A stretch of DNA of 32,850 nt from a virus (IMGVR_UViG_2548876941_000012); one strand, 5' to 3'; counted from the first letter of the stretch, positions 2,956 through 20,390 are shown. Numbers and translations are program-made. Notes: generated from the sequence alone by a model not told the origin.

Positions 2956-3194
2956 TGGAGAACAAGACGATGGACAAGCAGACCATTAACGCCGTCCGTT
3001 CCCGTGCCCGTGTGGCCATCCACACCACTGGTGGTCGTGTAACGGGACAACATCACCGTTTACCTGTGGTTTATGCCTGCCCGCCCGTGGGTGGTCCTGT
3101 ATGGCCGGTAACGGAAATCATCCAGACATTCAGCGGCCTGCGCCGCGTGGTGAAAACATCCTGTATCGACGGCTGCACCGTCGTATGGCAATGA
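2955..3194 (+). CDS. hypothetical early protein
   Basis: 79-aa ORF whose ATG overlaps the B stop codon (TGATG). No recognisable motif; possible alternative start at the internal Met (MDKQ). Confidence 0.4.
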   Translation: MENKTMDKQTINAVRSRARVAIHTTGGRVTGQHHRLPVVYACPPVGGPVWPVTEIIQTFSGLRRVVKTSCIDGCTVVWQ

Positions 3195-3206
3195 GAGGAA
3201 ATCAGA

Positions 3207-3422
3207 ATGGCGGTCAAGTTAGAAGTAATTATCTACACCGATGAAAATGGCACGCTTCGTGTCAGGAGTATGGGGGCTATTGATAAAAAAGGATTTACGG
3301 ATGAAGAGGTCGGTGTAAGACAACGGTTATGGGAGGTAATGAATCAAACTCTTAATAAAGAATTTAACGGCGTTGATTTATTTTCTGTTGGCGTGGAACC
3401 CTGCGCGCATAACACACATTAA
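3207..3422 (+). CDS. hypothetical early protein
   Basis: 71-aa ORF with good SD (AGAGGAAA) upstream of ATG; somewhat AT-richer than neighbours. Confidence 0.5.
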   Translation: MAVKLEVIIYTDENGTLRVRSMGAIDKKGFTDEEVGVRQRLWEVMNQTLNKEFNGVDLFSVGVEPCAHNTH

Positions 3423-3451
3423 TCTGTAAATATCACTGAGGTAATTTAATT

Positions 3452-4096
3452 ATGACGACTGAAAATAAAGTTAAGCAATACACGAAAACTCAAGCGCCTG
3501 AAGGTTACTGGGTGGATGCCCGTGGCGTAATGACACCTGAAAGCCTTATCAAAGATATTGACCGCGACCGCGAGCAGCTGGTCGGTGAGCTTGTGGAGAT
3601 GGTGATTGCTGCCTCCGCCTCACTGCGGGAACTGAAACTGCGTGCGTTTGGTGATATTCAGGCGTTTATTGACCTGTCGGCGGAGAAATACGGCGCTGTG
3701 AAAGGCGGTAAAAAAGGGAATATCACGCTTTACAGCTTTGACGGGCGTTACAAGATTCAGCGCGCCATGCAGGACCGTATCGCGTTTGATGAACGCATTC
3801 AGACCGCGAAGTCGCTGATTGATGATTGCCTGGCTGACTGGACGGAAGATGCACGCCCTGAAATTAAGGCCATCATCAGTGAGGCATTCAGCACGGACAA
3901 GGAAGGCAACATCAACACCGGTCGCGTTCTGGCCCTGCGTCGCCTCGAGATTGAGGACGAACGCTGGAATAACGCCATGTCGCTGATTGGTGAAGCCGTC
4001 CAGGTAATTGGCAGCAAAAGCTATATCCGCGTGTATGAGCGCGTCGGTGATTCTGCTGAATACCGCGCAATCCCGCTTGATATTGCAGGGGTTTAA
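3452..4096 (+). CDS. conserved Mu-like phage early protein (DUF3164-like, assignment from memory)
   Basis: 214-aa ORF, SD GAGG upstream. Family call is recollection only, not a search result. Confidence 0.6.
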   Translation: MTTENKVKQYTKTQAPEGYWVDARGVMTPESLIKDIDRDREQLVGELVEMVIAASASLRELKLRAFGDIQAFIDLSAEKYGAVKGGKKGNITLYSFDGRYKIQRAMQDRIAFDERIQTAKSLIDDCLADWTEDARPEIKAIISEAFSTDKEGNINTGRVLALRRLEIEDERWNNAMSLIGEAVQVIGSKSYIRVYERVGDSAEYRAIPLDIAGV

Positions 4097-4097
4097 C

Positions 4098-4331
4098 ATG
4101 CATCAGGATATCAAAGAGTACAGGGCTGGGAACCGTTGCGCAGCGTATTCGCTGGGCGCGTCCAGAGCAGAACAACGCGGCGATTATGCCGAAGCTGAAA
4201 AACTGTGGCGTAAGGCAGCACAAAGCCCGTGTAGTACCCTGCGCCGCATCTGGGCGGAACACCGGGCAGAGTTCTGTGCCAATGCTCACCTGAAAGGATG
4301 GAAGCCGCCTCATGAACGCGAAACGCTTTAA
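4098..4331 (+). CDS. small protein, possibly ANR-family-like
   Basis: ATG at 4098 two nt after the upstream stop; 77 aa with AAYSLGASRAEQRGDYAEAEKLWRKAA and RAEFCANAHLKGW segments. The track ORF 4008-4331 uses an upstream alternative start that overlaps the previous gene. Confidence 0.45.
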   Translation: MHQDIKEYRAGNRCAAYSLGASRAEQRGDYAEAEKLWRKAAQSPCSTLRRIWAEHRAEFCANAHLKGWKPPHERETL

Positions 4332-4503
4332 TCAGCTATATCCGCCAGGGACTCGCTTCATGCACATTGCACATCGGGCAGTGCGTGGTGGTCGGGTGGT
4401 AAAAACTGTTGCACCTGCCAGAGATTTTAAATGTGGTTGTGTGGTTGAAATTAATGTCGAGCCTTATTTCGTTAAAGTCGAAACACTGAAAGCACCGCAT
4501 TAA
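4312..4503 (+). CDS. hypothetical protein
   Basis: 63-aa ORF overlapping the upstream gene by 20 nt; last gene before an AT-rich gap containing a hairpin. Confidence 0.45.
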   Translation: MNAKRFNQLYPPGTRFMHIAHRAVRGGRVVKTVAPARDFKCGCVVEINVEPYFVKVETLKAPH

Positions 4504-4532
4504 TTTAATTTGTTTTTAATTGTTATTTAAAA

Positions 4533-4566
4533 CAGGCGTAAACCCGCAGGGGCTGGCTTACGCCTG
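4533..4566 (-). terminator. hairpin, probable terminator for the minus-strand gene 4644-4862
   Basis: 9-bp inverted repeat CAGGCGTAA / TTACGCCTG around a 16-nt loop. On the minus strand it is followed by TGTTTTAAAT; on the plus strand there is no U-tract. Confidence 0.4.
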
Positions 4567-4643
4567 AATCTGAGGAAGTTTATTTATGAATATTGCTAAG
4601 CAAAAAAAATTCGCCCGCGAAATTAATCTGACAATCGTTTGTT

Positions 4644-4862
4644 TTAATCGTCTTGCGACCAGTTCTCAATCGACAGCAGATGTTCATCCAGCGCCGCAGC
4701 CAGAACGAACTCCCCACGTTCCTGAAGGCCGTGCTGGAAGTTGCGTAATTCAGAATCCAGGGCGCTGAGGTTCAGACAGCCATTTTCTGAAAGCTGTTTA
4801 ACCAGAAAGCTCCACGCAGCTTTGTTAGCAGTAATTGCTGCCGCAATTTCATCATCAATCAT
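4644..4862 (-). CDS. reverse-oriented small acidic protein (72 aa), function unknown
   Basis: Only convincing minus-strand ORF in the window. SD AGGAG 5 nt upstream of ATG on the minus strand; enteric-like codon usage; net charge about -9 with acidic C-terminus ENWSQDD; downstream hairpin with U-tract. Confidence 0.5.
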   Translation of the reverse strand: MIDDEIAAAITANKAAWSFLVKQLSENGCLNLSALDSELRNFQHGLQERGEFVLAAALDEHLLSIENWSQDD

Positions 4863-4950: not shown

Positions 4951-5661
4951 ATGAAAGATAAATACATTGCCAAAATCAAAAAACTGTTACGCCTTGCCAA
5001 AGGAACATCAAGCCCGGAAGAAGCCGCTAACGCTATTGCAAAAGCCCAGGCTTATATGCGCCAGCATGGTATCAGCGAAAACGACGCGGAATTGTTCGAC
5101 ATTCAGGAAGCTGCCAGCGCGGGTGCGCCGAGTGACGCCAGTACGCCGCCGCGTTATATGCACATCCTGTGTGACCTAGTCTGTAAAGCCTTCGGTGTCG
5201 AGTGTTACATCTCCGGCGAATACCGGGCTTCTGGTTCACTTAAACGTTACGTGCGTTTTTATGGTCCTGACAGCCGCCCGGAAATCGCGGCTTACGCGTT
5301 TGATGTGCTTTCCCGTCAGATGATGGCAGAGCGCAAGAAATATCAGGATAAACACTGCAAACGTTGTGGTCCGTCCACGCGGGTAGCCCGTGGCGACCAG
5401 TTCTGCGAAGGCTGGGTCTTTGGTGCCCGTGATGTCATTGCGGTGTATGACGTCTCCCCGGAAGAAAAAAGCCGCCTTGAGCTTTACAGAAAGAACCTGC
5501 ACAGCACTAAGGGACTGCGCGACGGGGATATGCGCACAGCTAAAGCGTGTCGGGGTGCAGAGTTTGCCGCTACTGCCGGTTTTATCGCCGGGAAGAACGC
5601 CAGGCTGCATCAGGGGGTTAATGGTCAGAGCAACAGACCGCTGGCACTGGGGAGGGTGTAA
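4951..5661 (+). CDS. DUF2786-like phage protein
   Basis: 236 aa. N-terminus KIKKLLRLAKGTSSPEEAANAIAKAQAYMRQHGI matches my memory of the DUF2786 N-terminal helix pair; Cys-containing C-terminal domain. Confidence 0.65.
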   Translation: MKDKYIAKIKKLLRLAKGTSSPEEAANAIAKAQAYMRQHGISENDAELFDIQEAASAGAPSDASTPPRYMHILCDLVCKAFGVECYISGEYRASGSLKRYVRFYGPDSRPEIAAYAFDVLSRQMMAERKKYQDKHCKRCGPSTRVARGDQFCEGWVFGARDVIAVYDVSPEEKSRLELYRKNLHSTKGLRDGDMRTAKACRGAEFAATAGFIAGKNARLHQGVNGQSNRPLALGRV

Positions 5662-5663
5662 CG

Positions 5664-5891
5664 ATGGCTTTTAAACTTCTTAGTGTTACCGAAGCAATAT
5701 ACCAGCCGCCCGGAGAACGCCACGAATACAGGATGAATGACGGTAGCGCGGTGGTTGAGTTCCCCGGATATCCGGGGGCTTCCCGGTGGCGGTTCTATGA
5801 CAGTGTGGGACGTCGGATTATTAAAAGAACCGTGCACAACAATATGAAGGCTGCCGTAGAACGTCATAAGAGAAGGTTTAACTGCAAATGA
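5664..5891 (+). CDS. hypothetical protein
   Basis: 75-aa ORF; SD GGAGGG upstream; starts 3 nt after the preceding stop. Confidence 0.5.
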   Translation: MAFKLLSVTEAIYQPPGERHEYRMNDGSAVVEFPGYPGASRWRFYDSVGRRIIKRTVHNNMKAAVERHKRRFNCK

Positions 5892-8379: not shown

Positions 8380-8852
8380 TGAAAAAATGGTTGTTTTGTT
8401 TAGTAGGGGTTATTTTCTCTTGTTCTGTGCTAGCACAGACAGAGGAACAGGCGCAAAAGGAACTGAAACGTTATCAGGATATGAAGCCATTGGCTGAACA
8501 GATGCTTCGGGAAAGTGGAAAACTTTATTACGCTATGCCAGAAGCTGCATCGCAGTATCAGCAGGGAAATATTGAAGAGTGGAAGAATATCAAAAAAGGA
8601 CTAAAACAACTGGATGAACAGGCCAGTAAACTGGGGGACGACCCGCTTGATCCTGTGTATGGTTCCTGCATAAAAATGAAAAACCAGCTACAGGATTACT
8701 GGTCTAACGTTATCAGGGATGACAGGCAGTTTCTGGAGCGTTCAAGAAATCAGTTTAAAGAATATCGTATGGATTGTTTTGATTCGTTTGTTTTTGGTAA
8801 AGAGCAAATAGAATCAAGAAAAGGCCTGGTTATTCTAGACCTGACTAAATAA
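8376..8852 (+). CDS. secreted or periplasmic protein of unknown function (moron candidate)
   Basis: 158 aa with N-terminal signal peptide (MMKKWLFCLVGVIFSCSVLA, likely cleavage after VLA); visibly AT-richer than flanking phage genes; followed by a strong intrinsic terminator. Confidence 0.7.
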   Translation: MMKKWLFCLVGVIFSCSVLAQTEEQAQKELKRYQDMKPLAEQMLRESGKLYYAMPEAASQYQQGNIEEWKNIKKGLKQLDEQASKLGDDPLDPVYGSCIKMKNQLQDYWSNVIRDDRQFLERSRNQFKEYRMDCFDSFVFGKEQIESRKGLVILDLTK

Positions 8853-8862
8853 GACTTAGTTT

Positions 8863-8890
8863 AGCCCCTGCCATGCAGGGGCTTTTTTTG
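8863..8890 (+). terminator. rho-independent terminator
   Basis: AGCCCCTGC cat GCAGGGGCT stem-loop followed by TTTTTTT. Confidence 0.8.
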
Positions 8891-8894
8891 TGGT

Positions 8895-8923
8895 CTGTAC
8901 AGGCGATCATGTATGGCTATAAT
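8895..8923 (+). promoter_or_regulatory. promoter-like element with consensus -10 and weak -35
   Basis: TATAAT at 8918-8923; the hexamer 17 nt upstream is CTGTAC (poor match to TTGACA); about 30 nt upstream of the Mor/C-family gene. Confidence 0.45.
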
Positions 8924-8952
8924 AACAGTAAGTTACTACCGGAGACGCCATC

Positions 8953-9420
8953 ATGCAGACCTTCAGTGAAACAGATCTTCGCGATGCGCAGGCACTGCTG
9001 CCCGATTCCGTGCAGCAACTGATTAGCGTGATTGGCTTCCCCGCCCTGACCCGGTTGATTCGTTCTTTTGGTGGCGTGACGTTAAGCGGTAAAACCGGCG
9101 TACACGCCGAACGCACCGGCGGTGTCCATGCCCTGTTACATGACGTGCTCACCGAAGACGAAATCAACAAACTGATCCGCTTTCTTGGCGGTGCTCCGTT
9201 TTACATTCCCCGTTGCGATCATGCGTTACGTGCCCTGCGTAACACCCGTTTTATGGCTGATTTACAGCAGCATGTAAAAGACGGATGCTCACACCGGCAG
9301 GCGCTGGCACTGCTCTGTCCCCGTTACGGCATTTCAGACCGGTACGCATGGCAGCTGATACACCGACGACAAAAACAGACTTCGCTGAAAAGCCCCACCC
9401 AGGTGGGGCTTTTTGATTAA
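8953..9420 (+). CDS. Mor/C-family transcriptional activator
   Basis: 155 aa; LGGAPFYIPR motif and C-terminal HTH-like LCPRYGISDRYAWQLIHRR resemble Mu Mor/C proteins; position between early region and lysis genes. Confidence 0.7.
   Translation: MQTFSETDLRDAQALLPDSVQQLISVIGFPALTRLIRSFGGVTLSGKTGVHAERTGGVHALLHDVLTEDEINKLIRFLGGAPFYIPRCDHALRALRNTRFMADLQQHVKDGCSHRQALALLCPRYGISDRYAWQLIHRRQKQTSLKSPTQVGLFD
9391..9415 (+). terminator. rho-independent terminator overlapping the 3' end of the Mor/C-family gene
   Basis: AGCCCCAC ccag GTGGGGCT stem-loop followed by TTTTT, ending 3 nt before the stop codon. Confidence 0.7.
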
Positions 9421-9446
9421 TGGGCCTCAGAAAAAAGGAGACACTT

Positions 9447-9725
9447 ATGACCAACTATATGGCACTTGGCGAGTATACGGCCTACTCAGAGCAGGCCCGG
9501 GATGCTGCCGGACGTCGCTTTGCTTATATGAAAAATTTGGCCAGTCAGTTAAACCGAATGGCCGAACAACCGGATATGGTTGTTCAGGAAGAAGCGTTGC
9601 AGTGTGCCATTGCTGACATCATCGCCAGCGAAAACGAGATGCGCGCAGCGATGGAAAAGGCGAACGCCTCTGCTCCGCTTTGTAATAAACCTCTTATTAC
9701 GCCGGATTCTCTTTCCCGCTTCTGA
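9447..9725 (+). CDS. hypothetical protein
   Basis: Track ORF 9420-9725; ATG at 9447 has SD AGGAGA 6 nt upstream, giving 92 aa. Confidence 0.5.
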   Translation: MTNYMALGEYTAYSEQARDAAGRRFAYMKNLASQLNRMAEQPDMVVQEEALQCAIADIIASENEMRAAMEKANASAPLCNKPLITPDSLSRF

Positions 9726-9730
9726 TTTAT

Positions 9731-9750
9731 CACCCCGCCGCCGCGGGGTG
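9731..9750 (+). promoter_or_regulatory. GC-rich hairpin (CACCCCGC cgcc GCGGGGTG)
   Basis: Perfect 8-bp stem, 4-nt loop, no U-tract; its 3' arm overlaps the start of the dyad motif at 9748. Confidence 0.45.
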
Positions 9751-9775
9751 CTGAACTCCCCCAGCAGTACCCACC
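9748..9775 (+). promoter_or_regulatory. candidate late-promoter activator site, copy 1 (GTGCTGAACTCCCCCAGCAGTACCCACC)
   Basis: One of three copies of a GTGCTGAAC-NCCC motif found upstream of late operons (others at 17903 and 29821); about 130 nt upstream of the lysis cassette start. Confidence 0.5.
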
Positions 9776-9907
9776 ACACCAGACCGTTTACCCTGTCCAC
9801 TCAGACCACAAGGCACCTTAAGGGATAGCGCCCTGCAAAAGGCTTTTGTGCCTTTGACAGGGTGTTATTTACGGGCCGTCAGTGGCTCAGATTTACAGGA
9901 GAAACTC

Positions 9908-10300
9908 ATGTCTGAACCCTTATCAGGCGGCGGAGCTGTGGCAGTCACCATCGGTGGTGCCAGTGTGTTTGGCCTTCTCACCAATACCGATTTCGGGGTC
10001 GTGGTGGGCGCGTTTGCCGGGGCGCTTTTTGTTGTCACTCAGCAGAAAGAAATCCCGGTATGGCGAATGGCTATTCACCTGCTCGTCGCGTTTGTGGTTG
10101 GCGTTCTGGGGGCTGGCGTGGCTGCGTCACTGATGCAGTGGCTGACCCACTACAACGACAAACCGCTTGATGCATTGTGTGCGGTCGGTGTCTCGGCGTT
10201 ATCCATCAAGATACTGACCTTTCTTTATCAACAGGAAATTTCATCGCTGTTCGGCCTGTTTTCCAGACTGCGCGGCGGAGGGGGTGGAAATGGAAAGTAG
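9908..10300 (+). CDS. holin-like membrane protein
   Basis: Track ORF 9848-10300; ATG at 9908 with SD AGGAG; 130 aa with three hydrophobic helices; first gene of the lysis cassette. Confidence 0.6.
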   Translation: MSEPLSGGGAVAVTIGGASVFGLLTNTDFGVVVGAFAGALFVVTQQKEIPVWRMAIHLLVAFVVGVLGAGVAASLMQWLTHYNDKPLDALCAVGVSALSIKILTFLYQQEISSLFGLFSRLRGGGGGNGK

Positions 10301-10586
10301 CCTTGCCGGTATCGTGAACGTCTGGCTGTGTCTCGCCATTGTGCTGGGGTTGTTTGTGTATCGCCGCCACGGTGCGGCGCATAAACCGATGATTACCTGG
10401 CTGGCGTACTGGCTGATGCTCGGCTACATCATCATCCCGTTCCGCTGGCTGTCCGGTACATACACGCACTCCAGCTGGCTGGTTGTGGCGCTGAATCTGG
10501 TTTTCTGTGCGCTTATCGTGTGGGCGCACGGGAATTTGTCAAAAATCCTTTCGTTACTGAGGCATCCACATGAAATCAAAAGATGA
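10290..10586 (+). CDS. membrane protein (holin/antiholin-like)
   Basis: Track ORF 10284-10586 (GTG); ATG at 10290 with SD GGAGGGGG upstream; 98 aa with multiple hydrophobic helices; overlaps flanking genes. Confidence 0.5.
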   Translation: MESSLAGIVNVWLCLAIVLGLFVYRRHGAAHKPMITWLAYWLMLGYIIIPFRWLSGTYTHSSWLVVALNLVFCALIVWAHGNLSKILSLLRHPHEIKR

Positions 10587-17842: not shown

Positions 17843-17867
17843 CGTTTTTAAAAGGGTTTTAAAAACG
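17843..17867. repeat. AT-rich perfect palindrome (CGTTTTTAAAA ggg TTTTAAAAACG)
   Basis: Read directly; lies in the roughly 200-nt non-coding gap between G-like and I-like genes; followed by a T-rich tract. Confidence 0.6.
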
Positions 17868-17902: not shown

Positions 17903-17930
17903 AGGGTGCTGAACACCCTCCACAGTACCC
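17903..17930 (+). promoter_or_regulatory. candidate late-promoter activator site, copy 2 (AGGGTGCTGAACACCCTCCACAGTACCC)
   Basis: Perfect dyad AGGGTG-ctgaa-CACCCT; shares GTGCTGAAC..CCC and CAGTACCC with the 9748 copy; just upstream of the I gene. Confidence 0.5.
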
Positions 17931-17950
17931 CGTGTTCCCCTTCCGTCATC

Positions 17951-19075
17951 ATGCCGCGTATGAAGATGAACATTGCGGCGTTAAGCCTCGAAATTACTAA
18001 AGCAACCCACAGCGAAATCCAGCTGTTTCCGGCAGGCGAGTTCAGTGCAGTGGATGGTCGCCCACATACCGATGAAGTCGAAAGCGGTAAATGGGTGCTG
18101 ACTGCCGAACTGGCCGCGCAGCTTGTCGCACAGGTGGCAGCCCGTACCACGCCTTTTGTCATTGATTACGAACATCAGACGCTGCGCGCCGTAAACAACG
18201 GCAAGCCCGCCCCGGCGGCGGGCTGGTTCAGCCAGGTGGAATGGCGTGAAGGCGCGGGCCTGTATGCCATCGGTGTGGAGTGGACGGAGAACGCGGCGGC
18301 CATGATTGCCGCCGGTGAGTACAAATTTATTTCCCCGGTATTTGGATACAACCGGCGCGGCGAAGTCATCGAACTGTTACACGCCGCACTGACCAATACC
18401 CCGGCGCTGGACGGTATGGACGCGGTCATGCTGGCTGCGGCCAGCCGTCTGGCGAGTCTGTCAACTGAAACGGAGACCACAACAGTGGATGAAGAACTGT
18501 TAAACGATTTGCTGTCCAGTCTGCGCTGGATGCTTAACCTCCCGGTTACCTCAACGGCGGAAGATATCAAAAACGAGCTGCAAAAGGTCGTTGACATGAT
18601 TTCGAACGGTCAGGGAACGGCGGCGGCATCCGTCAGCCTGCTGGCCCTGCTGAATCAGAAAGACGAGCAAATCGCCAGCCTGTCAGCCAGTGCCTATGAC
18701 CCGTCAAAACACATTTCCCTTGCTGCCTTCGAAGAACTCCAGGGGCGTTATGCCGCACTGGCGCAACAGTCCGGTGAGGCCGAAGCCGGGGCACTGATTC
18801 AGGCGGCGCTGTCTGACGGGCGACTGCTTCCGGCACAGGAAGGCTGGGCGAAAGATTACGCCAGCCGCGATATCAACGGCTTTAAGTCCTGGCTGGATAA
18901 CGCACCGAAACTTGTTGCGCTCAGTCAGACCCAGACCGGCGGCAAACCACCCAAAACGCCGTCGCCTGCCCCGGCGCAGATTAAAACCGGCGATGACGTC
19001 GATGTCGATATCGCCATTTGTTCAATGATGGGCGTCGATCCAGAGGATGTCGCCCGTTACGCAGGAGATGAGTAA
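17951..19075 (+). CDS. head protease/scaffold protein (Mu I-like)
   Basis: Track ORF 17906-19075 starts at a GTG inside the promoter motif; first ATG at 17951 (others at 17960 and 17966). About 374 aa; Ala-rich coiled-coil C-terminal half; position before the capsid gene. Confidence 0.75.
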   Translation: MPRMKMNIAALSLEITKATHSEIQLFPAGEFSAVDGRPHTDEVESGKWVLTAELAAQLVAQVAARTTPFVIDYEHQTLRAVNNGKPAPAAGWFSQVEWREGAGLYAIGVEWTENAAAMIAAGEYKFISPVFGYNRRGEVIELLHAALTNTPALDGMDAVMLAAASRLASLSTETETTTVDEELLNDLLSSLRWMLNLPVTSTAEDIKNELQKVVDMISNGQGTAAASVSLLALLNQKDEQIASLSASAYDPSKHISLAAFEELQGRYAALAQQSGEAEAGALIQAALSDGRLLPAQEGWAKDYASRDINGFKSWLDNAPKLVALSQTQTGGKPPKTPSPAPAQIKTGDDVDVDIAICSMMGVDPEDVARYAGDE

Positions 19076-19481: not shown

Positions 19482-20390
19482 GTGTTAGTCAACGTTAAAA
19501 ACGTCAAACAGATTTTTATCAATCTGAAGGTCACCTTCCAGAAAGCCTTTGACCAGTCACCAACTGACTGGCAGAAGGTGGCAATGGAAGTGCCATCAAA
19601 CGGCAAGGAAAACGACTACAGCTGGTTAAGTCGTTTCCCGAAAATGCGCGAGTGGATTGGTGACAAGGTCGTTAAATCACTGGCGGCATTTAACTACACC
19701 ATCCGTAACAAGGACTGGGAAGCCACGGTTGAAGTCGATCGTAACGACATCGAGGACGACCAGATTATGGGCTATGCCCTTCAGGCAAAAGGAGCCGGAC
19801 AGTCGGCGGCAGAACTCCCGGCAGATATTGTGGCGTCCCTTATCAGTAACGGTTTTACCAATCCCTGTTACGACGGCCAGCCGTTCTTTGATACCGACCA
19901 CCTGGTCGCCGGTAAATCGGTGTCCAACAAAGGCACCAAAAAACTCAAAGTTGGCTCGCTTGCCGAAGCGAAAGCCTCCTACGGTGCCGCCAGAACTGCC
20001 ATGCGTAGTCTGAAAGATGACGAAGGCGCATCCCTCAAAATTCGCCCGAATCTGCTGGTTGTGCCACCGGCGCTGGAGGATGACGCGAACTACCTGATGA
20101 CCGCCGAGAAGTTCCCGGACGGTACGCCGAACCCGTACCGCAATACCGCCGAAGTGCTGGTGATGCCGGAGCTGGCGTCGGATTCTGCGTGGTTCCTGTT
20201 TGACACCACCAAACCGGTGAAACCGCTGATTTATCAGTTGCGTAAAAAGCCGGTTTTTGTGGAGCAGACGGACTATAACAGCGACAACGTGTTCAAACGT
20301 AAGAAGTTCCTGTTTGGTGCTGAAGCGCGCTGTAACGGCGGTTACGGCTTCTGGCAGATGGCATTTGGTTCTGATGGTACGACGGAGTAA
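19482..20390 (+). CDS. major capsid protein (Mu T-like)
   Basis: Track ORF 19440-20390; GTG at 19482 with SD AAGGAG upstream, about 302 aa; position after protease/scaffold. Confidence 0.8.
   Translation: MLVNVKNVKQIFINLKVTFQKAFDQSPTDWQKVAMEVPSNGKENDYSWLSRFPKMREWIGDKVVKSLAAFNYTIRNKDWEATVEVDRNDIEDDQIMGYALQAKGAGQSAAELPADIVASLISNGFTNPCYDGQPFFDTDHLVAGKSVSNKGTKKLKVGSLAEAKASYGAARTAMRSLKDDEGASLKIRPNLLVVPPALEDDANYLMTAEKFPDGTPNPYRNTAEVLVMPELASDSAWFLFDTTKPVKPLIYQLRKKPVFVEQTDYNSDNVFKRKKFLFGAEARCNGGYGFWQMAFGSDGTTE

Follow-up and report, generated by a model that had tools for sequence, protein, structure and literature searches.

In the present work, we examine a stretch of viral DNA of 32,850 nucleotides (IMGVR_UViG_2548876941_000012; the whole stretch is called the window below, and positions are counted from its first letter) and a short box that occurs in it three times on the + strand, in the intergenic gaps before the lysis, head protease/capsid and baseplate genes. 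The original prediction, made from the sequence alone, had described three near-identical elements at these places and had compared them with the late promoters that protein C activates in phage Mu. Both the sequences and the coordinates are confirmed here. We find that the three elements are best explained as activator-dependent late promoters of a Mu-like prophage, as with Mu C, a reading to which we give a probability of about 0.85 on the basis of the sequence data. The symmetry element within the box, on the other hand, turns out to be a different one from that first described.

The gene order of the prophage is Mu-like, starting with a repressor and a Ner-like gene, transposase A and B, early genes, GemA, the Mor-family gene and lysis genes, and continuing with terminase, portal, F, G, I (protease), T (capsid), tail genes, N, P, gp45, gp46, gp47 and tail fibres. 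The gene assignments are based on Pfam, PHROG and the RefSeq (PGAP) annotation of the record of E. coli O127:H6 E2348/69, from which the start codons of the holin gene (9908), gpI (17960) and gp46 (29875) are also taken. Positions 8900-10400 of the window are 100% identical to a prophage of this strain, and the same stretch is present, with a coverage of 80% or more and an identity of 95% or more, in 54 of 5,426 complete E. coli genomes. In NC_011601.1, the matching Mu-like prophage disrupts eutC.

The Three Boxes

The core of the element, GTGCTGAACNCCC, has 12 specified bases and exactly three matches in the window, at 9748, 17906 and 29822, all of them intergenic and on the + strand. A search of the whole window on both strands finds no copy with one mismatch, the next best having at least two, and the chance expectation for exact copies is about 0.004 (2 x 32850 / 4^12). 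The 9-mer GTGCTGAAC by itself occurs a fourth time, within the gp43 gene on the - strand (27004-27012), where the CCC extension is missing; with about 0.25 expected, this occurrence is compatible with chance. The 15-mer under which the element was originally described, GGGTGCTGAACACCC, is found in copy 2 only, and copies 1 and 3 deviate from it by one mismatch (CTCCC arm) and two mismatches (AAGTG arm), respectively.

Copy 1 comes after a small open reading frame (ORF) that trails the Mor gene, and the holin ATG follows at a distance of 157 nt. For copy 2, located between G and I, the distance to the gpI ATG is 51 nt, and copy 3 begins one base past the gp45 stop codon, 50 nt before the gp46 ATG. 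A counterpart of box 2 is present at the same gene junction in about 45 related prophages, and the distance from box 3 to the ATG, 50-51 nt, is kept in five diverged prophages. In box 1, the left half-site TGA is at 9752-9754 and the right half, CCA at 9761-9763, is degenerate.

A position weight matrix (PWM) was trained on 60 sites, taken only from relatives whose Mor protein is <90% identical to that of the window, and was scanned over 47 kb of prophage and host flanks on both strands (93,902 positions). The three copies of the window occupy the first three ranks, with scores of 23.6 for box 3, 14.6 for box 1 and 12.7 for box 2, while the next best position scores 6.2. The ranking therefore points to exactly three such promoters, with none near the right end beyond the window. 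The coordinates of all features are collected in Table 1.

Table 1. Features of the window discussed in the text, followed by the late promoters of phage Mu placed on NC_000929.
Feature	Position	Strand	Sequence	Remarks
Mor/C-family late activator gene	8953-9420	+		155 aa; presumed binder of the three boxes
GC-rich hairpin	9731-9750	+	CACCCCGC-cgcc-GCGGGGTG	8 bp; abuts box 1
Copy 1	9748-9775	+	GTGCTGAACTCCCCCAGCAGTACCCACC	
Box 1 (putative lysis promoter)	9748-9765	+	GTGCTGAACTCCCCCAGC	predicted -53 to -36
-10 of putative lysis promoter	9789-9794	+	TACCCT	offsets 39-44 from CTGAAC; predicted start about 9801 +/- 2
Copy 2	17903-17930	+	AGGGTGCTGAACACCCTCCACAGTACCC	
Box 2 (putative head protease/capsid promoter)	17906-17923	+	GTGCTGAACACCCTCCAC	
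-10 of putative gpI promoter	17947-17952	+	CATCAT	predicted start 17959-17960, at the gpI ATG (17960)
Copy 3	29821-29839	+	AGTGCTGAACACCCTCACC	
Box 3 (putative baseplate promoter)	29822-29839	+	GTGCTGAACACCCTCACC	best dyad of the three (TGA ... TCA)
-10 of putative gp46 promoter	29863-29868	+	CAGACT	predicted start 29875, the A of the gp46 ATG
gp46 RNA hairpin	29852-29880	+	GUCCAUGCUGCCA-gac-UGGCGGCAUGGAC	-23.8 kcal/mol, z = -5.5
Mu Plys	start about 10457			leader about 20-23 nt
Mu PI	start about 18032			24 nt before annotated gene I start; Shine-Dalgarno-like GCAGGA
Mu PP	start about 27341			in gene N, 347 nt before P

Putative Promoter Architecture in Related Prophages

Conservation was examined on 79 capsid-related loci, which were scanned for the exact motif and then for repeated k-mers within each locus. 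The exact motif of the window has no match in these loci. Non-conservation was considered as the reason and rejected; the divergence lies at the two bases 5' of a shared CTGAAC (CCA for GTG). The repeated-word search shows that each of the closest capsid relatives has a box triplet of its own with the same spacing, namely CCACTGAACCCCTTCA at 511, 8443 and 20261 in Trabulsiella, whose box is shared by Kosakonia, and GCCGCTTCACCCCCGTA at 347, 8416 and 19950 in Mixta.

More distant relatives were collected with an alignment-based scan of IMG/VR, by which 61 loci were added whose Mor homologs are 39-65% identical; it was used instead of a scan of viral contigs with the single Mor protein, which returned near-identical relatives only. 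An unbiased search without any prior motif takes, for each locus, the best 16-mer that the first 1 kb downstream of the Mor gene shares with the 170 nt upstream of gpI. In about 45 prophages, whose Mor identities range from 39% to 100%, a CTGAA[C/G] box is recovered in this way. In close relatives (Mor 92-100% identical), CTGAAC and CCC are invariant, and in several of them the right half becomes a perfect CTGA-N6-TCAG. Where the Mor homologs are 56-82% identical (Salmonella, Xenorhabdus and others), both the lysis and the gpI junction have GCTGAACCC.nTCA, and offsets 39-44 are occupied by TAnnnT.

When 22 sites from 11 phages are aligned on CTGAAC, a hexamer NAnnnT starts at offset 39 in 20 of them and at offset 40 in the other two, in which the ATG is also displaced by one; all other offsets score 0-4. 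A larger set, for which about 50 related prophages contributed 67 unique sites, gives a composite promoter that combines the box tgCTGAACcCC.TCA, containing the dyad TGA-N6-TCA, with a -10 hexamer xAnnnT and is without a usable -35. The dyad pairs are complementary in 79% (T2/A13), 100% (G3/C12) and 90% (A4/T11) of these sites; within the hexamer, A2 is kept in 65 sites and T6 likewise in 65. The distance from the dyad centre (offset 7.5) to the first base of the -10 (offset 39) is 31.5 bp in 65 of the 67; it is measured directly, and the numbering that places the dyad at -43.5 relies on the transcription start that we infer. At the usual -1/+1, offsets 50-51, a C-A dinucleotide is conserved even at lysis sites that have no ATG there. 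Among the relatives, the hexamer of site 1 takes the forms TACCCT, TATCTT, TATCCT, TATTCT and TACACT, in which A2 and T6 are kept and the other positions vary.

The best match to TTGACA at 16-18 bp spacing reaches just 1-3 of six positions in 63 of the 67 sites, i.e. there is no recognisable -35, and a consensus sigma-70 scanner has no hit where the window's three copies lie. The option that CTGAAC itself is a -35, with a -10 about 17 bp downstream (offsets 17-28), was also considered and was rejected, as no hexamer is conserved there.

The comparison over homologous prophages is in line with the original prediction, the box being conserved at the same gene junctions in dozens of them. The inverted repeat GGGTG-N5-CACCC, which had been taken as the core of the element, does not hold up, however. 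Its pairs are complementary in 3-48% of the 67 sites, and the conserved dyad TGA-N6-TCA lies 4.5 bp downstream.

Two further groups of sites have other boxes. In a Luteibacter metagenome-assembled genome (L070, about 8550-8604 and 20165-20216), a perfect palindrome CAAGCGCTTG or CAAGCCCTTG, of unrelated specificity, occurs in the same architecture, with its centre preceding both the gpI and the gp46 ATG by exactly 43.5 nt (counted to the A) and with CAACAT or GAACAT at -12 to -7. Four IMG/VR loci (L159, L167, L171 and L174) contain a long perfect inverted repeat, TTTCTGGTCC ... GGACCAGAAA, at -72 to -38 before gp46; its centre is near -54.5, one helical turn upstream of -43.5, and CAACCT or CAATCT follows from -14.

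The Mor/C-Family Protein

The 155-aa protein encoded ahead of the lysis genes scores 28.5 bits against Pfam PF08765 Mor (gathering cut-off 24.9) and matches PHROG 836, 'late transcriptional activator', with E = 3.5e-42. The profile of its subfamily matches Mu C (PDB 9l0x, 9vw8) with E = 5.6e-4 across the beta-strand, the helix-turn-helix (HTH) and the C-terminal Q..LF. In this alignment, LGGAPFYIPR and GISDRYAWQLIHRRQK correspond to GGRQFYIP and LSQPQIYQIIARQRK of Mu C, which are the beta-strand linker, of the form GG-x-x-(F/V)YIP, and the C-terminal HTH, respectively; Mu Mor can be aligned over these two regions as well. The residues S110, Q113, Y115 and R120 of Mu C have been reported as DNA contacts (bioRxiv 10.1101/2025.05.02.651988); the counterparts of S110, Y115 and R120 are conserved as S, W and R, and that of Q113 varies. 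Clamp-binding motifs have been described for Mor/C, the N-terminal one being Qx[DE][LM]F and the C-terminal one QPDLF (PMC12867686). The 155-aa protein ends with QVGLFD, which resembles the clamp-binding QPDLF of MuC, and Q-x-x-L-F is conserved across the subfamily, while no N-terminal clamp-binding motif is present in the protein (MQTFSETDLRD). The identity to Mu C and Mor is below tblastn detection at 1e-5, and there are two insertions relative to them, one of about 26 aa after helix 2 and one of 9 aa before the HTH.

All subfamily members with a recognition helix starting G[FI][SA]DR go with boxes of the CTGAAC type. In the lineages with a G[FI](G/A)NT helix (Mixta, Pantoea), these junctions are occupied by CCGCTTCACCCC or CCCGTCTCACCCC, and the spacing to the -10 is unchanged. 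From these comparisons we infer that the 155-aa protein binds the box and that transcription depends on it. The box had originally been ascribed to a dimeric regulator. This wording may need revision, as a preprint reports that Mor/C bind as tetramers and not as dimers (bioRxiv 10.1101/2025.05.02.651988).

Neither of the ORFs next to the activator gene is a second Mor-family gene (hhalign probability <1%). The one that follows it, at 9447-9725, encodes 92 aa (101 aa from the in-frame ATG at 9420) and belongs to PHROG 7152, with function unassigned. Such a small ORF is found after the Mor gene throughout the clade (92-99 aa in L101-L103); that of the window has no Pfam match and no similarity to the Mor profile, and its product may be a cofactor.

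In the Xenorhabdus prophage L104 (NJGH01000050.1), there are two Mor-family genes, at 4315-4779 and 5328-5786. Directly upstream of the second one, at 5240-5290, there is a CTGAACCCCTTCA box with AATACT at offsets 39-44. This would be either a Mu-like Mor-to-C cascade or autoactivation, with the same box type.

Ahead of the Mor gene of the window we observe an intrinsic terminator, AGCCCCTGCCATGCAGGGGCT followed by T7, at 8863-8883, and a near-consensus sigma-70 promoter, TGTACA-16-TATAAT (10/12), at 8896-8923, about 30 nt before the Mor ATG. With this terminator and promoter, the activator gene seems to have an activator-independent promoter.

Proposed Mechanism and Alternatives

According to the mechanism that we propose, the three promoters would drive three late operons, i.e. 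lysis, head (from gpI) and baseplate/tail-fibre (from gp46). Each promoter would consist of the box at about -53 to -36, with the imperfect dyad TGA-N6-TCA at -43.5, and a weak sigma-70 -10 (xAnnnT) at -12 to -7, with no functional -35, and the host RNA polymerase alone would be unable to use it. The single Mor/C-family protein would bind the box over the -35 position and would recruit or activate RNA polymerase, like Mu C at Plys, PI and PP. At the level of sequence, Mor/C-family late activation as in Mu is strongly supported by the -10 spacing, the lack of a -35, the -43.5 geometry, the conservation of the junctions and the contrast between helices and boxes. What we observe directly is the sequence architecture, its conservation and specificity, and the family membership of the protein; binding, activator dependence and start sites are predicted from these.

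It is important to point out that a number of observations weigh against this reading. The right half-site is degenerate in copies 1 (CCA) and 2 (TCC), which makes the dyad weaker than in the relatives, and the -10 hexamers of copies 2 and 3 are weak. The box is out of register with that of Mu C, in which CATAAC-CCC lies about 9 bp nearer to the -10. The co-variation of helix and box amounts to essentially one contrast, between two lineages. Finally, the evidence is comparative throughout, orthologous sites share descent, and the counts given above overstate the number of independent observations. The conserved columns are informative despite this, because the sequence between box and start is largely randomised among the orthologous sites.

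Several other explanations were considered. The recognition unit could be GGGTG-N5-CACCC itself, bound by a dimer and centred at about -48. Its two arms are complementary at 4/5, 5/5 and 3/5 positions in copies 1-3 and close E. coli relatives mostly retain GGGTG, but over the 67 sites its pairs are kept far less often than those of TGA/TCA. A relative with a 92% identical Mor protein (L098) has TACTG in place of GGGTG at site 1, and the large CCACTGAACCCC group is entirely without this dyad. Furthermore, the GGGTG of copy 1 is part of the adjoining lineage-specific hairpin, and a centre at -48 does not match the Mu geometry. We consider this option unlikely, although it is the least improbable of the alternatives. 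Somewhat less probable again is that the boxes serve another protein, either the product of the 9447-9725 ORF or a host factor, and that the Mor-family protein acts elsewhere. The small ORF, of unassigned function, is indeed syntenic with Mor in all close relatives examined; it is, however, unlike Pfam DNA-binding families and the Mor profile. The geometry of the sites is moreover of the Mor/C type, the box differs where the recognition helix of Mor differs, and the box of the Xenorhabdus prophage precedes a second Mor-family gene, as expected of a Mor-to-C cascade.

A repeat that works as RNA, i.e. as a processing site, an antitermination signal or a translational operator in read-through late transcripts, would fit the placement of all copies on the transcribed strand, the start of copy 3 one base past a stop codon, and the conserved RNA hairpin nearby at gp46 (see below). 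This option is very unlikely in our view, as the box has no conserved RNA structure, the GGGTG/CACCC pairing not being kept, and as the fixed distance to the A2/T6 hexamer and to the C-A start dinucleotide are features of a DNA promoter. The window also has no Rfam match at the gathering threshold, and site 1 follows a hairpin that probably closes the upstream operon. Another option is a -35 element for a sigma factor of the extracytoplasmic function (ECF) type. GAAC is typical of ECF -35 elements (RpoE-type promoters) and is included in CTGAAC, and copy 3 has TCTGA 13 nt downstream. The spacing needed is about 18 nt, however, and TCTGA is missing from copies 1 and 2 and from most relatives. 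No element is conserved at 16-18 nt spacing, the xAnnnT hexamer 32 nt after the box fits sigma-70 with an upstream activator, and no sigma gene is seen among the annotated prophage genes; this scenario is thus even more improbable. The lowest probability, close to nil, is given to chance recurrence or a recombination scar without any regulatory role. The copies do lie at the boundaries of the lysis, head and baseplate modules, where mosaic joints of phages occur, but three exact copies are found against the small fraction of one expected by chance, and the box is kept at the same junctions where the flanking genes are just 40-60% identical, with the -10 at a fixed distance.

Predicted Leaderless Cistrons and the gp46 Hairpin

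We now consider the position of the predicted starts relative to the genes. At the lysis promoter, the predicted leader extends for about 107 nt to the holin ATG. The other two promoters are different in this respect. In the phages of the CTGAAC type examined, the ATG falls on offset 51 for gp46 and on 51-52 for gpI; the distance from box to ATG is thereby fixed at 50-52 nt, with varying sequence in between, and a -10 at offsets 39-44 puts the start at offset 51. In a set of 53 unique gp46 upstream regions from IMG/VR, which covers at least five different box types, NAnnnT is found at -12 (29 regions), -13 (13) or -14 (9) from the A of the ATG. When anti-Shine-Dalgarno pairing is calculated for 48 annotated genes of the prophage, gpI (+1.2 kcal/mol) is the weakest and gp46 (-1.5 kcal/mol) the second weakest; the chance of this pair ranking first and second is about 1 in 1,128. 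Position 29875 is the first possible start codon of the gp46 ORF. Because the ATGs are at the predicted +1 and the two Shine-Dalgarno pairings are the weakest, the gpI and gp46 mRNAs are predicted to be leaderless, with +1 at the A of the start codon.

At gp46, there is in addition a conserved RNA hairpin (Table 1), in which the -10 hexamer lies across the apex, its A-11 and T-7 closing the loop, and the AUG belongs to the 3' arm. RNAalifold on 28 diverged homologs yields the same helix, with 11 pairs, of which four show compensatory double changes. The outer six pairs are near-invariant and the one-sided changes are nearly all to G.U (+ strand), while the next four inner pairs have compensatory double changes in 8, 2, 3 and 8 sequences. 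Several of the homologs are much stabler as + than as - strand RNA, e.g. -14.9 versus -4.1 kcal/mol. As the -10 spans the apex and the AUG is in the 3' arm, the hairpin can only be present in RNA that started upstream, i.e. in read-through transcripts.

The most economical idea is that the hairpin blocks gp46 translation on read-through RNA; an action at the DNA level is also conceivable. Together with the predicted leaderless starts of gpI and gp46, this leads to the tentative proposal, to which we give somewhat less than even odds, that in this large clade of Mu-like prophages translation of the first cistron is licensed only by initiation at its own activator-dependent promoter. If true, such promoter-coupled translation would allow separate dosages for head, tail and baseplate proteins even where transcripts read through.

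Neighbouring Features

The original prediction had also noted that copy 1 is overlapped by a GC-rich hairpin. The hairpin is real, with 8 bp and with -17.6 kcal/mol for the 36-nt stretch 9725-9760 (z = -3.5). It is, however, lineage-specific, being missing in the close relative L098 and in many others, and was for this reason rejected as a conserved part of the promoter. Although the stem is present, no T-tract comes after it at 9731-9750 and the terminator scanner does not call an intrinsic terminator there. The hairpin is probably the 3' end or a stabiliser of the activator operon, accessory to the promoter and not part of its core.

In other loci (L187, L189/L104 and L192), the left half of the box is repeated in inverted orientation (TTCAGCAGG ... 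CCTGCTGAA) 10-25 nt upstream of the boxes of the lysis promoters, and this copy forms a palindrome or hairpin that takes in the box. It might offer a tetramer one more half-site upstream, or it might be the hairpin at the 3' end of the activator operon.

Box 2 is preceded in the G-I intergenic region, at a distance of about 40 nt, by an AT-rich palindrome, CGTTTTTAAAAGGGTTTTAAAAACG, at 17843-17867, which is conserved as CGTTTTTAAAA-sGGG-TTTAAAA in diverged relatives (L001, L002, L004, L103, L104, L198 and L204). In Mu, this intergenic region contains the annotated strong gyrase site with a similar stretch next to it, and the palindrome may be the equivalent of that site. About 60 nt upstream of box 3, within the gp45 coding region, a sigma-70-like match TTGACG-16-TAAAAT (10/12) occurs at 29739-29766 and is probably due to chance.

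The gpG and gp46 proteins are 99% identical to those of the E2348/69 record. The coordinate offset between the window and NC_011601.1 shifts by one base, from 4313 to 4312, within about 2970-3452, and three coding-sequence starts have no exact 30-nt match between the two. Because of these small differences in proteins, offset and coding-sequence starts, the window is not necessarily the exact E2348/69 assembly. A 71-aa ORF at 3207-3422 of the window is unannotated in NC_011601.1.

Significance and Comparison with Known Systems

In terms of mechanism, the system is a new example of the known Mu type. No prior description of the box consensus, or of leaderless late genes in Mu-like phages, was found in the searchable literature. 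The present analysis gives a sequence-level definition of late promoters, with box, dyad, -10 and predicted starts, for a widespread Mor/C subfamily of Enterobacterales prophages, and the PWM can be used for annotating the late operons of Mu-like prophages. The -43.5 geometry of Mu persists where the sequence of the box is wholly changed, as in the Luteibacter and Mixta lineages. Because the geometry is kept while the box changes, these phages constitute a natural series for how Mor/C proteins read DNA. A crystal structure of Mu Mor is known, and transcription-activation complexes of both Mor and C have been solved (PDB 9l0x, 9vw8; bioRxiv 10.1101/2025.05.02.651988).

The site recognised by Mu C is an imperfect dyad of 16 bp, which has its centre at -43.5 and overlaps with the -35 region. 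The promoters Plys, PI and PP have -10 hexamers but lack a -35; the protection by C covers about -30 to -55, and Plys requires the stretch from -52 to -34 (PMC2582627). The promoters of the window resemble these in the dyad-to--10 distance of 31.5 bp, which corresponds to -43.5, in having a -10 without a -35, and in the overlap of the box with the -35 position. As in Mu, there are several copies, each heading a late operon, the first between the activator gene and lysis and the second in the G-I region, and the activator gene sits directly upstream of the lysis promoter, as C does. An analogous hairpin, AACCGGCA-tcc-TGCCGGTT, is found in Mu between the C stop codon and the Plys box.

The published oligonucleotides of the Mu promoters carry 20 nt after each mapped start (PMC4461284) and were used to place the starts on NC_000929 (Table 1). 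The comparability of the positions with those of Mu, which had been part of the original prediction, applies to the lysis and G-I promoters but not to the third one, which in the window is at the gp45/gp46 junction, two genes past the position of Mu PP in gene N. A fourth promoter of the mom type, as in Mu, is not present here. The prophage also has one Mor/C-family member instead of the Mor-then-C pair of Mu, and whereas the Mu activator gene is served by the activator-dependent middle promoter Pm, that of the window has a terminator and then a near-consensus sigma-70 promoter ahead of it.

The boxes of Mu, CACCATAATCCCGCACC, TAGCATAACCCCAGATT and TGCCATAACCCCGGACG (PMC4461284), follow TTAT..CATAAyCCC and are unlike CTGAAC.CCC.TCA, represented in this comparison by box 3 (GTGCTGAACACCCTCACC). 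The only feature common to both is the AAC-CCC run, in a different register. This mismatch concerns Mu's own specificity and not the Mor/C promoter class.

The leaders constitute a further difference. The lys and I transcripts of Mu have leaders of about 20-24 nt with Shine-Dalgarno-like sequences, while the gpI and gp46 ATGs are here at the predicted +1. Mu PI was considered as a near-leaderless precedent, with an ATG 8 nt after the start, and was rejected in view of the annotated gene I start further downstream and its Shine-Dalgarno-like sequence. If confirmed, leaderless first cistrons combined with the gp46 hairpin would be a distinct variant, unusual for late structural operons in E. coli. 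Leaderless mRNAs are known in temperate phages, e.g. lambda cI transcribed from PRM, and the likeness to cI consists in a predicted start at the A of the AUG and the lack of a Shine-Dalgarno sequence. Unlike cI, which encodes a repressor, the predicted leaderless cistrons are here the first genes of late structural operons.

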